Part shown: positions 1 to 7,239 of the stretch, piece by piece
How the letters are laid out: each line of letters opens with the position of its first letter
How positions within the stretch are numbered: the first letter of the stretch is position 1
IMG/VR virus record: IMGVR_UViG_2529292835_000020
Source of the DNA: a virus
Lineage: Duplodnaviria; Heunggongvirae; Uroviricota; Caudoviricetes
Length of the DNA stretch: 7,239 nucleotides
Direction: 5' to 3' (one strand)
Program-made: the position numbers and the translations under genes
The notes under the pieces: generated by a model
What the model was told of the DNA's origin: nothing
Seen by the model: the letters and a program-made list of their open reading frames with translations, nothing else
The model's database searches: none

Positions 1-296
1 AACACATCTCGATTTTTTGAAGCAATATGGTGATTTTGAAAATGGTATTCCTGTTCACGATACCATTGCCAGAGTTGTATCCTGTATCAGTCCTGCAAAA
101 TTTCACCAGTGCTTTATTAACTGGATGCGTGACTGCCATTCTTCAGATGATAAAGACGTCATTGCAATTGATGGAAAAACGCTCCAGCACTCTTATGACA
201 AGAGTCGCCGCAGGGGAGCGATTCATGTCATTAGTGCGTTCTCAACAATGCACAGTCTGGTCATCGGACAGATCAAGACGGATGAGAAATCTAATG
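1..296 (+). repeat. Direct repeat, identical to 6944-7239 (internal segment of the transposase gene)
   Basis: Base-by-base comparison by eye of window start and window end shows no mismatch. Confidence 0.9.
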
Positions 297-982
297 AGAT
301 TACAGCTATCCCAAAACTTCTTAACATATTGGATATTAAAGGAAAAATCATCACAACTGATGCGATGGGATGCCAGAAAGATATTGCAGAGAAGATACAA
401 AAACAGGGCGGTGATTATTTATTCGCGGTAAAAGGAAACCAGGGGCGGCTTAATAAAGCCTTTGAGGAAAAATTTCCGCTGAAAGAATTAAATAATCCAG
501 AGCATGACAGTTACGCAATGAGTGAAAAGAGTCACGGCAGAGAAGAAATCCGTCTTCATATTGTTTGCGATGTCCCTGATGAACTTATTGATTTCACGTT
601 TGAATGGAAAGGGCTGAAGAAATTATGCGTGGCAGTCTCCTTTCGGTCAATAATAGCAGAACAAAAGAAAGAGCCCGAAATGACGGTCAGATATTATATC
701 AGTTCTGCTGATTTAACCGCAGAGAAGTTCGCCACAGCAATCCGAAACCACTGGCACGTGGAGAATAAGCTGCACTGGCGTCTGGACGTGGTAATGAATG
801 AAGACGACTGCAGAATAAGAAGAGGAAATGCAGCGGAATTATTTTCAGGGATACGGCACATTGCTATTAATATTTTGACGAATGATAAGGTATTCAAGGC
901 AGGGTTAAGACGTAAGATGCGAAAAGCAGCCATGGACAGGAACTATCTGGCGTCAGTCCTTGCGGGGAGCGGGCTTTCGTAA
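1..982 (+). CDS. ISAs1-family (H-repeat-associated, DDE-type) transposase, 5'-truncated by the window edge; codons start at nt 2, stop TAA 980-982
   Basis: Open frame from the window edge to 982; provided ORF 17..982 translation (…[29 protein letters not shown]…[20 protein letters not shown]…) matches, from memory, the E. coli H-repeat proteins (YhhI/YdcC/YbfD paralogs); I cannot say which paralog. Its first 296 nt are identical to 6944-7239, the continuation of the complete 5' end seen at 6789. Confidence 0.9.
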
Positions 983-1011
983 TCTTGCCCTGGGTAGGAG
1001 GCCCTCCAGGG

Positions 1012-1464
1012 ATGTTAGTCGGTGCGGCAGTTGGAGCGGTGGTTATTGGTGGTGGTATAGTAATATACAACAATCGCGAGGCTGTTGGGGATGCGATTGA
1101 GAAAAGTATGGAGATGCGGGGTGAAGCCGAATTATTAAATGCACAAAGTCAAATGGAATTCTGGCGAGATCCCTATGGTGCTTTTTCCAGCGTGTTTGGA
1201 AATGATGATTCATCAAAAGAGAATCCAAATGTCGGGAAGGATTTGACGGATGAAGAGAAGAACTGTTTGGGCAGTGGCAGTACAGGAGGTTCGGGAGGGT
1301 GGGAGCCAGATGAGGATGGCGAAATAAGAAATACCTACAGGTCTATTAAGGATGCTCCTCAGTATCCCAGAGGGTTTAGGAATGTCCAAAATGGCACTAC
1401 AAGGAATGTTGTAAAGGATCAGCAGTTATTGAAACAATTACGTAAAGTAGATTCAGGAAAATAG
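1012..1464 (+). CDS. Hypothetical protein with N-terminal glycine-zipper-like hydrophobic segment; possible orphan toxin-like remnant; ends at amber TAG 1462-1464 but the frame stays open to TAA 1582-1584
   Basis: ATG 1012 preceded by AGGAGG 995-1000 (the ORF track's 985 start is a TTG). N-terminus MLVGAAVGAVVIGGGIVIY is hydrophobic and Gly-rich, followed by a hydrophilic body. Body is AT-rich unlike the rhs core. Function not recognised. Confidence 0.4.
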   Translation: MLVGAAVGAVVIGGGIVIYNNREAVGDAIEKSMEMRGEAELLNAQSQMEFWRDPYGAFSSVFGNDDSSKENPNVGKDLTDEEKNCLGSGSTGGSGGWEPDEDGEIRNTYRSIKDAPQYPRGFRNVQNGTTRNVVKDQQLLKQLRKVDSGK

Positions 1465-1583
1465 AGTAAAGTTTATAAAGATGGATTTGATGCGTCAGGT
1501 CGAAAAGTGTCCATTCACTATTTTGAAAGTCAGAGTGGTCGAGTATTTAATGTAAAAGTAAAACCTTATTGGAGTAATTTATA

Positions 1584-1924
1584 ATGAGAATTGATTATAG
1601 TATTAGCAATGAACACGCAGAGAAATTTATCAGTCTTTTAGTGTTGGGTGTTTTATATTCTATTGAAAAAAAGCAATATCTATAGATGAGGCAGAAGGTT
1701 TTATATTTAAGCCATCTACGTCAAAAACATTGAATGCTGCATCGCACTCTAAAAACTTAATTGACATTATAGATTCTGGTTGTGAGCTTGAAGATATATC
1801 TAGCATCATTCCTGAAAATTTATCAGGTAATATTGATAAATTAATTAACCAGACGCTGGATTTTATTCGAGGTGCTCCTGATTTTGGCGGTGCAGTCGAT
1901 AAGGAAATTATTTTAGTCAAATAA
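1584..1924 (+). pseudogene. Small gene (candidate immunity-like partner) split by a -1 frame change at an A7 tract: 1584..1685 (33 codons) continues in the -1 frame 1667..1924
   Basis: ATG 1584 overlaps the upstream TAA (TAATG) with GGAG at 1571-1574. The frame stops at TAG 1683-1685, but the -1 frame is open from 1667 to TAA 1922-1924 and has no plausible ATG of its own. One extra A in the 1666-1672 run would fuse both parts into a 113-codon ORF. Confidence 0.35.
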
Positions 1925-1990: not shown

Positions 1991-2156
1991 ATAAGGGAGT
2001 GAGAATGAGCGGAAAACCGGCGGCGCGGCAGGGCGACATGACCCGCAAGGGACTGGATATTGTGCAGGGTTCAGCAGGGGTGCTGATAGGCGCGCCGACG
2101 GGGGTTGCCTGCTCGGTGTGTCCTAAAAAAAGGACAGTCCAAATTATGGCAACCCG

Positions 2157-3407
2157 GTGAACCCGGTGCTGGGTGCAAAGGTGCTGCCGGGCGAGACGGA
2201 CATTGCGCTGCCCGGCCCGCTGCCGTTCATCCTTTCCCGCGCCTACAGCAGTTACCGGACCAGGACGCCCGCGCCGGTAGGGGTGTTCGGTCCCGGCTGG
2301 AAAGCGCCCTTCGATATCCGCTTACAGATACGCGATGAAGGCCTGATACTCAACGACAGCGGCGGCAGGAGCATTCACTTTGAGCCGCTGTTTCCCGGCG
2401 AGGTAAGCTACAGCCGCAGCGAGTCACTCTGGCTGGCGCGGGGCGGAGTAGCGGCGCAGCACAGTTCGCAGCCGCTAAGCGCGCTCTGGCAGGTGCTGCC
2501 GGAAGATGTTCGCCTGAGTCCGCATGTGTACCTGGCGACAAACAGCCTTCAGGGGCCGTGGTGGATACTCAGCTGGCCGGAGCGGGTGCCGGGGGCGGAC
2601 GAGGTGCTGCCGCCGGAGCCGCCCGCATACCGGGTGCTGACGGGCGTGGTGGACGGCTTCGGGCGGACGCTGACTTTCCACCGGGCGGCGGAGGGTGACG
2701 TGGCGGGCGCGGTGACGGGGGTGACGGACGGCGCGGGCCGCTGTTTTCACCTGGTGCTGACCACACAGGCGCAGCGGGCGGAAGCCTTCCGTAAACAGCG
2801 CGCCACGTCTTTATCTTCCCCTGCCGGTCCCCGTTCTGCTTCCTCTTCTTCTGCTTTCCCCGACACGCTGCCCGCCGGTACAGGATACGGTGCCGATAAC
2901 GGTATCCGGCTGGAGGCGGTGTGGCTGACACACGACCCGGCATACCCGGATGAACAGCCGACTGCGCCGCTGGCGCGCTACACGTACACGGCCAGCGGAG
3001 AACTGCGGGCGGTGTATGACCGCAGCGGGACGCAGGTTCGCGGGTTTACTTATGATGCGGAGCACGCCGGGCGGATGGTGGCGCACCATTATGCGGGGAG
3101 GCCGGAGAGCTGCTACCGGTATGATGATACCGGTCGGGTGACGGAGCAGGTCAACCCGGAGGGGCTGGACTACCGCTTTGAGTACGGAGAGAGCCGGGTA
3201 ATCATCACGGACAGCCTGAACCGGCGGGAGGTGCTGTACACGGAAGGCGAGGGTGGCCTGAAGCGGGTGGTGAAGAAGGAGCATGCCGACGGGAGCATCA
3301 CCCGCAGCGAGTATGATGAGGCGGGGAGGCTGAAGGCGCAGACGGATGCGGCGGGGCGGCGGACGGAGTACCGGCTGCATATGGCGTCGGGTGCGGTGAC
3401 GCGGTGA
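2157..3407 (+). CDS. Rhs N-terminal core fragment (a gene caller would report this segment of the rhs pseudogene as a separate CDS)
   Basis: ORF-track frame; translation aligns with the Rhs N-terminal region as I recall it (NPV-GAKVLPGETD-ALPGPLPFILSR-YSSYRT…). Not an independent gene. Confidence 0.5.
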   Translation: MNPVLGAKVLPGETDIALPGPLPFILSRAYSSYRTRTPAPVGVFGPGWKAPFDIRLQIRDEGLILNDSGGRSIHFEPLFPGEVSYSRSESLWLARGGVAAQHSSQPLSALWQVLPEDVRLSPHVYLATNSLQGPWWILSWPERVPGADEVLPPEPPAYRVLTGVVDGFGRTLTFHRAAEGDVAGAVTGVTDGAGRCFHLVLTTQAQRAEAFRKQRATSLSSPAGPRSASSSSAFPDTLPAGTGYGADNGIRLEAVWLTHDPAYPDEQPTAPLARYTYTASGELRAVYDRSGTQVRGFTYDAEHAGRMVAHHYAGRPESCYRYDDTGRVTEQVNPEGLDYRFEYGESRVIITDSLNRREVLYTEGEGGLKRVVKKEHADGSITRSEYDEAGRLKAQTDAAGRRTEYRLHMASGAVTR

Positions 3408-3905
3408 CGGGGCCGGACGGCAGGACGGTACGGTATGGCTATAACAGCCAGCGGCAGGTGACGTCAGTGACGTACCCGGACGGGCTTCGCAGCAGCCGGG
3501 AGTATGATGAGAGGGAAGGCTGACGGCGGAGACCTCGCGCAGCGGTGAGACAACGCGGTACAGCTATGATGACCCGGCGAGTGAGCTGCCGACAGGGATA
3601 CAGGACGCGACGGGCAGTACAAAACAGATGGCATGGAGCCGTTACGGTCAACTGCTGGCCTTCACGGACTGCTCGGGGTACACGACGCGGTATGAGTACG
3701 ACCGGTACGGTCAACAAATCGCCGTTCACCGGGAAGAAGGCATCAGCACTTACAGCAGTTATAACCCGCGTGGCAACTGGTCAGTCAGAGGGATGCGCAG
3801 GGGCGGGAGACCCGTTATGAGTACAGCGCCGCAGGCGACCTGACAGCGACGATATCACCGGACGGTAAACGCAGCACCATCGAATATGATAAACGCGGGC
3901 GTCCG

Positions 3906-4613
3906 GTGAGTGTGACGGAAGGCGGTCTGACGCGCAGCATGGGGTATGACGCTGCCGGGCGCATCACTGTGCTGACCAACGAGAACGGCAGCCAGTCCAC
4001 GTTCCGGTATGACCCGGTCGACAGGCTGACGGAGCAGCGTGGCTTTGATGGCAGGACGCAACGTTACCAGTATGACCTGACCGGAAAACTCACGCAGAGT
4101 GAAGATGAGGGGCTTATCACCCTCTGGCACTACGATGCGTCGGACCGCATCACCCGGCGCACGGTGAACGGCGACCCGGCGGAGCAGTGGCAGTATGATG
4201 AACACGGGTGGCTAACCACCATCAGCCATACCAGTGACGGCCACCGAGTGTCGGTCCACTACGGCTATGACGATAAAGGCCGCCTGACGGGCGAACGGCA
4301 GACGGTGGAGAACCCGGAGACGGGGGAGATGCTGTGGGAGCATGAGACGGGGCATGCGTACAGCGAACAGGGGCTGGCGACCCGTCAGGAGCCGGACGGC
4401 CTGCCGCCGGTGGAGTGGCTGACGTATGGCAGCGGTTATCTTGCGGGGATGAAGCTGGGCGGAACGCCACTGGTCGAGTACACGCGGGACCGGCTGCACC
4501 GTGAGACGGTGCGCAGCTTCGGCGGTGGCAGGCCTGATGAAGCTTGCCACCGCCTGGACATACACCCTCACAGGGCAGCTACAGAGCAGGCACCTGAACC
4601 TCCCGCAGCTTGA
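3906..4613 (+). CDS. Rhs central core fragment with YD repeats (segment of the rhs pseudogene)
   Basis: ORF-track frame; YD-repeat content ([18 protein letters not shown]); homologous frame actually opens at about 3765. Confidence 0.45.
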
Positions 4614-6240
4614 CCGGGACTACGACTGGAACGACAACGGACAGCTAATCCGCATCAGCGGCCCGCAGGAGAGCCGGGAGTACCGTTACAGTGACACGGG
4701 AAGGCTGACGGGCGTCCACACCACGGCGGCGAACCTGGATATCGATATCCCGTATGCGACGAACCCGGCAGGAAACCGGCTGCCGGACCCGGAACTGCAC
4801 CCGGACAGCACCCTCACGGCGTGGCCGGATAACCGCATCGCGGAAGATGCGCACTATGTCTACCGCTACGATGAATACGGCAGGCTGGCGGAGAAGACGG
4901 ACCGCATCCCGGAAGGGGTGATACGGATGCACGACGAGCGGACCCACCACTACCACTACGACAGCCAGCACCGTCTGGTGTTCTACACGCGGATACAGCA
5001 CGGTGAGCCGCAGGTGGAGAGCCGCTACCTCTATGACCCGCTGGGCCGCCGGACGGGAAAACGGGTGTGGCGGCGGGAGCGTGACCTGACGGGGTGGATG
5101 TCGCTGTCGCGTAAACCGGAGGAGACATGGTACGGGTGGGACGGTGACAGGCTGACGACGATACAGACCGGCACCACGCGTATCCAGACGGTGTACCAGC
5201 CGGGGAGCTTCACGCCGCTCCTGAGAATCGAAACAGAGAATGGCGAACAGGCGAAGGCGCGGCACCGTAGCCTGGCGGAGGTGTTGCAGGAGGACACGGG
5301 TGTGACGCTACCGGCGGAGCTGGCGGTGATGCTGGGGAGGCTGGAGCGGGAACTGCGCGCGGGAGCGGTGAGTGCGGAGAGTGAGGCATGGCTTGCGCAG
5401 TGCGGGCTGACGGCGGAACAGATGGCCGCGCAGATGGAGGCGGAATACATCCCGGAGAGGAAACTTCATCTTTACCACTGTGACCACCGTGGACTGCCGC
5501 AGGCGCTCATCACCCCGGAAGGCGAAACGGCGTGGTGCGGGGAGTATGACGAGTGGGGGAACCAGCTTAATGAGGAGAACCCGCATCACCTGTACCAGCC
5601 GTACCGTTTGCCGGGGCAGCAGTATGATGAGGAGTCGGGACTGTATTACAACCGTCACCGGTACTACGATCCGTTGCAGGGGCGGTATATCACCCAGGAT
5701 CCGATAGGGTTGAAGGGGGGAATAAATCTATACACGTATCCACTGGCACCAATACGTTACACTGATCCACTGGGGTTAGAACGAGTTATAAGTGTATATG
5801 GGCCTCCCGCTCCAGACCGGGCAGGTGCTGAAACTCCTCTTGTTCTTACTGATATGACTGGAGGAGTGACTATTTATTATGATCCTGAAACAGGTGATTC
5901 AATGACTTTTGATAGTAGCAATAGAATTGATCGTCGTTCTCAACGTGGTGCTGGTGATCCATATACAGGTGAAGTCGTTGGTTGTGAGACAAATGAATCA
6001 GGAATATCGGCAGCATATGGCACAACGAAGATCTATACTACAGATACTAGAGCAAGATGGCTACATGGTGGGGGATCATCGTTGCGCGATCCTTATGCTC
6101 CTCGACAAGGCTGGAAACCAACTATGGGATGTACCCGTGCACAGAATGAAGATGTAGATGAGTTGTGTAAGAAAGTGACAAGTTGGATGTATTCGCATCC
6201 TGGAGAGAGAATTAGATATGAACGTTTTAAGACACGTTAA
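4501..6240 (+). CDS. Rhs C-terminal core plus toxin tip (longest intact segment of the rhs pseudogene)
   Basis: 579-codon open frame containing YD repeats, DPLGL (5764-5778) and the 153-codon C-terminal domain; stop TAA 6238-6240. Confidence 0.55.
5779..6237 (+). other. Rhs C-terminal toxin domain, putative L,D-transpeptidase (YkuD) fold
   Basis: Begins immediately after DPLGL. Contains WLHGGG (His codon 6064-6066) and, about 22 residues later, [17 protein letters not shown] (Cys codon 6130-6132), resembling the YkuD His … (S/T)xGC(I/V)Rx-N-D…L active-site signature. Composition switches to AT-rich. Confidence 0.5.
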
Positions 6241-6610
6241 TGCGATTAACATGGGAGTGTGCATTCTAATTTTGGTTATTGGATGTGCAAATGCTAAAGT
6301 TCTTAAACGATGTATATTACCCGCTCCTGATGGTGGCGTAGAAAAACTATCAAAACCCAACTTACATGGAGTAATTAAAAAAGTTGATTTGAACACAAAT
6401 GAAGCGGAAATTAAAATAAAAGAGGGGGGGGCAGTGAGTTTTATTTTTAATGAGGAAACATTGTATTTTACTGTTTTTGGTGGGGATTTTATTATGGATG
6501 ATTTAAAAAAAGTAAAAAATACGGAAGCATGGGTATGGTATAAAAATTGCGATAGTAAAAATAAAAATGTGGCAGTTGAACTTCTTCAAATCTACGAATT
6601 GCATCAATGA
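6218..6610 (+). CDS. Predicted lipoprotein or exported small protein; candidate cognate immunity protein of the Rhs C-terminal toxin
   Basis: ATG 6218 overlaps the last codons of rhs (stop 6238-6240). N-terminus [23 protein letters not shown] has a positive n-region, hydrophobic core and lipobox-like VIGC (AXA-like ANA follows). AT-rich; stop TGA 6608-6610. Position matches Rhs immunity genes. Confidence 0.65.
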
Positions 6611-6788: not shown

Positions 6789-7239
6789 ATGGAACTTAAA
6801 AAATTGATGGAACATATTTCTATTATCCCCGATTACAGACAAGCCTGGAAAGGGGAGCATAAATTATCGGATATTCTACTGTTAACTATTTGTGCCGTTA
6901 TTTCTGGTGCAGAGGGTTGGGAAGATATAGAGGATTTTGGGGAAACACATCTCGATTTTTTGAAGCAATATGGTGATTTTGAAAATGGTATTCCTGTTCA
7001 CGATACCATTGCCAGAGTTGTATCCTGTATCAGTCCTGCAAAATTTCACCAGTGCTTTATTAACTGGATGCGTGACTGCCATTCTTCAGATGATAAAGAC
7101 GTCATTGCAATTGATGGAAAAACGCTCCAGCACTCTTATGACAAGAGTCGCCGCAGGGGAGCGATTCATGTCATTAGTGCGTTCTCAACAATGCACAGTC
7201 TGGTCATCGGACAGATCAAGACGGATGAGAAATCTAATG
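6789..7239 (+). CDS. ISAs1-family (H-repeat-associated) transposase, complete 5' end, 3'-truncated by window edge
   Basis: ATG 6789 preceded by AAGGAG (6777-6782). Translation [67 protein letters not shown]… runs to the window end with no stop; 6944-7239 is identical to 1-296. Confidence 0.9.
6944..7239 (+). repeat. Direct repeat, identical to 1-296
   Basis: Same comparison as for 1-296. Confidence 0.9.

Follow-up and report, generated by a model that had tools for sequence, protein, structure and literature searches.

An Amber-Interrupted Orphan Rhs C-Terminal Fragment and Its Frameshifted DUF3969 Partner Gene in Escherichia coli rhs Arrays

Organization of the Locus

The window, which is the whole stretch of 7,239 nt analyzed here, opens with an ISAs1-family insertion element. 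This is followed on the same strand by a small module of two genes, a large PAAR-Rhs gene with a short overlapping open reading frame, and the start of a second ISAs1 transposase gene (Table 1). The transposase frame of the first element ends with TAA 980-982. The right end of the element was set by comparison of two ISAs1 copies in strain E110019, which are common up to ...TAATCTTGCCCTGGG and then diverge, placing the end of the element at about position 994, so that the remnant behind it starts at about 995. Self-alignment did not locate the terminal inverted repeat of ISAs1. Homology to Rhs proteins begins at the residues VGGPPG, and one related protein (P0015) begins about 30 residues earlier, at DPLGL. 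Since ISAs1 abuts the fragment at about position 994 and the homology starts from VGGPPG onward, both the Rhs core and the DPxGL junction were lost to the insertion element. The module thus consists of an orphan Rhs C-terminal fragment, truncated by an IS, and of a partner gene, and is not a stand-alone gene.

Table 1. Features of the window and the basis of their assignment.
Feature	Position	Strand	Basis or content
ISAs1-family (H-rpt / ISEc1-like) element	17-994	+	RefSeq annotation of the identical stretch (IAI1, others)
Orphan Rhs C-terminal fragment up to the amber codon	995-1464	+	Gly-rich hydrophobic stretch, linker, first 48 residues of the toxin domain
Complete toxin domain of ~88 aa, amber read through (GEIRNTY...PYWSNL)	1318-1581	+	Alignment A1, profile search, AlphaFold2
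Amber TAG, derived from TGG (domain Trp49)	1462-1464	+	Family Trp, TGG in Salmonella L002
3' part of the toxin gene, now untranslated: 39 codons (β2-β4) and ancestral stop TAA 1582-1584	1465-1584	+	Alignment, model, profile
GGAG ribosome-binding site (1571-1574) and TAATG overlap with the presumed immunity gene	1571-1586	+	Same arrangement in Salmonella, Gilliamella, Xenorhabdus
DUF3969 (PF13108) presumed immunity gene, broken	1584-1924	+	1-nt deletion in A-run 1666-1672 (A7; ancestral 8)
PAAR-Rhs gene, frame broken at several points, C-terminal domain YkuD-like	2005-6240	+	Downstream context
Presumed immunity gene of the downstream Rhs	6218-6610	+	Equivalent gene annotated in C41
Second ISAs1 transposase gene, start	6789-7239	+	Bases 6944-7239 identical to 1-296

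Bases 960-1960 (1001 bases) recur with 100% identity in many complete E. coli genomes, among them IAI1. The order of genes in IAI1 is vgrG (a pseudogene), an RHS core protein, dsORF-e4, an IS1 remnant, the ISAs1 transposase, an ORF of 150 aa and a DUF3969 ORF of 64 aa; behind the module follow a second RHS core protein with a downstream ORF, ISAs1, pptA, yddH and nhoA. In strain 120899 the same module lies behind the hcp-vgrG-rhs genes of a full T6SS cluster. A scan of positions 850-2100 for promoters and terminators gave no promoter-like site on the + strand and fewer sites than shuffled sequences.

The two ends of the window (1-296 and 6944-7239) are identical. Two ISAs1 (H-rpt) copies in the same orientation bracket the orphan module and the downstream Rhs gene, an arrangement open to deletion or duplication through homologous recombination. 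The downstream PAAR-Rhs gene shares 97.5% identity with an intact copy in C41, relative to which it has 1-nt deletions at about positions 3400, 3512 and 3773, a cluster of indels at 4523-4552 and, in the PAAR region, CCTAAAAAAAGGACAGTCCAAATT in place of 2123-2140. An identity of 99% or more over this PAAR-Rhs stretch is reached by no complete E. coli genome, and the differences may be either true lesions of a pseudogene or errors of the assembly. Its C-terminal domain (5710-6240) gives a weak match to the YkuD (L,D-transpeptidase) family of Pfam (E = 3.4e-5, just above the cut-off), which suggests a peptidoglycan-targeting effector. The overlapping ORF at its end encodes 130 aa with a hydrophobic N-terminus and presumably represents the cognate immunity gene.

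The Amber Codon and the Frame Behind It

The first ORF of the module starts with ATG 1012 and runs over 150 sense codons to TAG 1462-1464. Beyond this amber codon the same frame continues with 39 sense codons (SKVYKDGFDASGRKVSIHYFESQSGRVFNVKVKPYWSNL) to TAA 1582-1584, and this second stop overlaps the ATG at 1584 of the next ORF (TAATG, 1582-1586). The earlier note had described this in-frame TAG with its 39 codons and the overlap, and the translation of 1012-1587 confirmed the coordinates. Both other reading frames are closed by stops between 1465 and 1584. At the local base composition (38% GC, 0.08 stops per codon), a run of 39 codons free of stops has a probability of about 0.04 of arising by chance. 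As evidence for a gene the open run is suggestive only, and homology decides.

Upstream, ATG 1012 is preceded by AGGAGG (996-1001). At the other end, the GGAG in front of the partner gene sits within the conserved Trp-Ser codons of the toxin gene. This nested position, together with the conserved adjacency to and overlap with the DUF3969 gene, sets the end of the ancestral gene at 1584. The automated annotation (PGAP) has a CDS at 1012-1464 for a 150-aa ‘hypothetical protein’ (WP_000960005.1) and a CDS at 1730-1924 for a 64-aa ‘DUF3969 family protein’ (WP_000990552.1), thus treating both fragments as ordinary coding genes and not as pseudogenes.

A C-Terminal Domain Shared With Rhs Proteins

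The read-through translation was searched against 5.8 billion protein clusters. The hits comprise two groups. The first consists of near-identical E. coli fragments that end with ...RKVDSGK (P0002, P0003 and P0007). The second contains proteins of Salmonella, Snodgrassella, Gilliamella and Xenorhabdus and of metagenome-assembled genomes (MAGs) of Enterobacteriaceae and Syntrophomonadaceae; those with a complete C-terminus all continue across the amber position in the pattern ...ESGKW.KVYKDG.D.SG.KVSIHYF.SQSG.VFNVKVKP.WSN and end 0-3 residues later. No intact protein with more than 67% identity was present among the 5.8 billion clusters.

A profile of the domain of about 88 aa, scored against 1.84 billion representatives, matched 394 proteins at E ≤0.001 (themselves representatives at 50% identity), including 96 at E ≤1e-30. 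The domain is located at the extreme C-terminus in nearly all of these matches, whose lengths span about 100 to 3686 aa. All retrieved proteins were realigned to this profile, in which the amber codon corresponds to position 49. A tryptophan occupies this position in 159 out of 160 sequences. Most matches extend far beyond it, with 154 out of 168 reaching profile position 84 or further and mostly ending at most six residues from the C-terminus of the protein. Among the 168 matches, a stop at position 48 is seen only in the E. coli alleles P0002, P0003 and P0007. Homologs that end where the window has TAG 1462-1464, which the earlier note had named as refuting evidence, were thus not found beyond these alleles.

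The closest DNA relative is a Salmonella homolog with 78% identity over 700 nt. Its AAAATGGAGTAA (L002) stands against AAAATAGAGTAA in the window, so that the amber site differs by one G-to-A change. As the tryptophan is near-invariant and the Salmonella copy has TGG, the amber codon is a TGG-to-TAG transition. The earlier note had placed the original end of the gene at 1584 and taken the amber for a later nonsense mutation; both proposals are borne out, the former by the homologs that cross the amber position and by the TAATG overlap in three other genera, the latter by the family tryptophan and the Salmonella TGG. The Salmonella enterica copy (L002, 2860-2890) keeps TGG and has a 1-nt deletion of its own (GTAAAA-TAAAACC), which truncates the last ~8 residues.

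The carriers of the domain are diverse. They include RHS-repeat proteins, proteins that combine RHS with a PT-HINT domain (P0099, P0170) and a PAAR-like protein (P0016). P0049 (1588 aa) and P0170 (3101 aa) both have RHS repeats with the toxin domain as their last ~86 residues, and the Salmonella proteins P0005 and P0006 are RHS proteins carrying the domain as well. We also observed the domain without an Rhs carrier, on proteins of about 150 aa with N-termini that resemble Sec signal peptides by eye (Xenorhabdus japonica L008 2501-3309, P0024 and P0027). In X. japonica L008, DUF3969 comes directly after the toxin gene and overlaps it in TAATG, and a phage-lysis gene is close by. Modular spread over different carriers and a small gene that stays in place downstream are, taken together, the hallmark of a polymorphic toxin/immunity pair.

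The read-through product had no match in Pfam or NCBIfam, and family scans of the 14 alignment members at E-values up to 10 returned scattered single hits only. The PDB contains no sequence match to the toxin domain.

Predicted Structure of the Toxin Domain

A confident AlphaFold2 model was obtained from the 14-sequence alignment (mean pLDDT 88.8, pTM 0.78). The predicted elements are β1 (residues 21-31), a helix (35-41), β2 (49-57), β3 (63-71) and β4 (76-83), so an amber codon at position 49 removes β2-β4, or three of the four predicted β-strands. The invariant residues lost past the amber codon are K51, Y53, S65, H67, Y68, F69 and K80. Any product now lacks the three strands and most of the conserved polar residues and would very probably be non-toxic. 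The 39 codons behind the amber still keep every invariant residue, meaning that either the mutation is recent or the region is not yet drifting. A Foldseek search with the domain model gave nothing significant and thus no solved structural relative.

The DUF3969 Partner Gene

The second gene of the module is broken by a frameshift. Its zero frame stops at TAG 1683-1685, whereas the -1 frame runs to TAA 1922-1924. The break, mentioned in the earlier note as an A7 break, lies at the A7 run 1666-1672, where a change to the -1 frame restores a protein of 113 aa. This restored product matches DUF3969 across the break (residues 10-103, E = 4.7e-18 in Pfam; 65.6 bits against a gathering cut-off of 25) and covers profile positions 4-96 out of 106, which is nearly the whole model of a family that has no described function. 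Literature searches for DUF3969 and PF13108 returned no paper mentioning the family. The Salmonella immunity gene reads GAAAATAAGG against GAAAA-AAAG in the window, leaving a 1-nt gap in the latter. With the amber codon in the toxin gene and this gap in its partner, the proposal of the earlier note that both genes are disabled is upheld.

A DUF3969 gene is located directly downstream of the toxin-domain gene in four other genera. The junction is a TAATG overlap in Salmonella (L002), Gilliamella (L006) and Xenorhabdus (L008) and a 20-nt spacer with AAGGAG in Syntrophomonadaceae (L007). From this conserved adjacency in five genera, we infer that the DUF3969 protein is the immunity protein of the pair.

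The A-run is polymorphic in E. coli, with A6 in L003, A7 in nearly all copies and A8 in two out of 604 genomes. Both A8 genomes (SCU-152 and VCSW8) still carry the TAG. Their assemblies contain many other frameshifts, so the A8 may be an assembly error.

Distribution of the Disabled Alleles

A 70-mer with the TAG is present as an exact match in 588 out of 607 E. coli records, which stem from 605 of 5426 complete genomes with 735 copies in all and up to three per genome. The same 70-mer with TGG has no exact match in any of the E. coli records. The one of the 19 variant records that was inspected keeps the TAG and has a Ser-to-Pro change after it. Among 185,579 species representatives, a 32-mer is found only in Shigella flexneri, where the ISAs1 junction, the TAG and the A7 run are likewise present. 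TAG is thus the only allele found in E. coli and Shigella, through which a single disabled haplotype has spread.

The amber-bearing domain also occurs in a second E. coli context, behind a different pre-toxin linker (P0007; L003 1-420 from the Logan assembly SRR12298635, and L009 6001-6424). In E110019 this linker corresponds to the end of a main Rhs gene, which implies that the C-terminal region recombined between rhs loci after it had been mutated. A P0007-type fusion was not found in E110019 itself, where only the end of the main Rhs gene with the linker is present, running into other downstream genes. Further damaged copies were seen elsewhere: P0015 and P0028 have a frameshift after KDAP, P0008 and P0009 one in the linker. 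Given such independently damaged copies, decay of the cassette seems to be common.

Alternative Explanations

We considered four other readings of the interrupted frames. In the first, the truncated product of 150 aa, which consists of the hydrophobic Gly-rich segment, the linker and the first third of the domain, would have gained a new function under selection. This would explain the wide spread of the identical allele, found in ~11% of complete E. coli genomes, and ATG 1012 does have an AGGAGG in front of it. However, the near-identity of the copies is equally explained by recent common descent and hitch-hiking in the rhs array, the AGGAGG corresponds to Gly-Gly codons of the ancestral protein, and frameshifted variants of the very same fragment exist (P0008, P0009). 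A selected product is therefore improbable in our view.

A second reading takes the two interruptions as a pair of recoding sites, with low-level read-through of the amber codon and -1 slippage in the A-run together yielding a weak yet still working toxin/immunity (addiction) module. The run and the following G 1673 form A_AAA_AAG in phase with the zero-frame codons AAA 1668-1670 and AAG 1671-1673. This heptamer is the slippery site of dnaX, on which a low percentage of shifting occurs even where stimulators are absent. The match to a dnaX-type site is thus exact, the phase is right, the -1 frame is the DUF3969 frame and gives the full-length protein, and the codons after the amber are undamaged. 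The stimulatory elements are, however, absent from the window: no significant RNA structure was detected downstream of the run (z = -1.08) and no SD-like stimulator upstream of it. Neither the stop nor the shift is conserved, as the homologs have a tryptophan and one continuous immunity ORF. The length of the run varies between A6, A7 and A8 in the manner of a mutational hotspot, and the fragment has lost the Rhs core and the usual expression signals. The break is therefore best taken as a 1-nt homopolymer deletion and not as a programmed -1 frameshift, and a codon that is Trp in 159 of 160 members likewise speaks against a programmed read-through. A recoded module that still works is very improbable, and it is more probable that the domain of about 88 aa represents an undescribed family of polymorphic toxins with DUF3969 as its immunity family.

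The two remaining readings carry next to no weight. Sequencing or assembly errors of the source genome were conceivable as the downstream Rhs gene has several 1-nt deletions relative to intact copies and the source assembly could be error-prone, but the replication of 960-1960 at 100% identity in many independent complete genomes including IAI1, and of the TAG 70-mer in 588 of 607 records and in S. flexneri, excludes an error. That the gene truly ends at 1464 and the later codons are a chance open frame is no more credible: PGAP ends its CDS at the TAG and the chance expectation of ~0.04 is not negligible, but the part of the family that is conserved best (K51, Y53, H67-Y68-F69, K80 and W85) lies in these 39 codons and is covered by 154 of the 168 matches.

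Relation to Known Orphan Rhs Modules

Orphan rhs-CT/rhsI modules downstream of main rhs genes are well described (PMC3150448, PMC3967940), and Poole et al. (2011) reported one orphan with an in-frame stop codon (PMC3150448). The module in the window resembles these orphans (PMC3150448, PMC3967940) in that it consists of a toxin fragment with a small partner, located behind a main rhs gene that is linked to vgrG and behind the immunity gene of the latter, and in that its C-terminal domain is also found on full-length Rhs proteins elsewhere. It differs in two respects. In typical orphans, part of the rhs core is retained along with the DPxGL junction, allowing recombination with the main gene, whereas here both were lost to ISAs1. 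In addition, the studied orphans encode functional pairs, while the toxin and immunity genes of the window are both mutationally broken.

Starsta et al. (2020) showed that some Salmonella Rhs-CT/immunity pairs are expressed internally and behave like type II TA systems (PMC7043789). The module in the window is similar to these pairs in having an orphan Rhs-CT, an immunity gene that overlaps it downstream and, with AGGAGG ... ATG 1012, a start that may be internal. However, the P2 promoter of the Salmonella pairs is located in the rhs core upstream of PxxxxDPxGL (PMC7043789), a region that is missing here, and the toxin gene of the window differs by its nonsense mutation.

Decay of the Module in E. 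coli rhs Arrays

We consider it highly probable that positions 995-1924 hold an orphan Rhs toxin/immunity module in decay, which belongs to a T6SS-associated vgrG-rhs array of E. coli, and no observation contradicted this reading. ISAs1 (H-rpt) removed the Rhs core with the DPxGL junction, leaving the Rhs C-terminal region and the DUF3969 gene behind. The toxin gene once ended with TAA 1582-1584, where its overlap with the DUF3969 start in TAATG provided translational coupling. One G-to-A transition turned the near-invariant Trp codon TGG 1462-1464 into TAG. With ribosomes stopping 120 nt before the immunity start, this coupling would be lost. The immunity gene, in turn, lost one A from an A8 run. 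The amber was probably the first of these two changes, or at least the earlier one, because two A8 genomes still carry the TAG.

The biological importance of the locus itself is small, as it adds one more decaying orphan toxin/immunity cassette to the E. coli rhs arrays and no new mechanism. For the RefSeq entries of 150 and 64 aa, two pseudogenes would be the better description. Only the toxin domain family, which has no name as yet, and its connection with DUF3969 are new, and only mildly so. With DUF3969 as the likely immunity partner of this widespread C-terminal domain of about 88 aa, the DUF3969 family acquires a function that can be tested.
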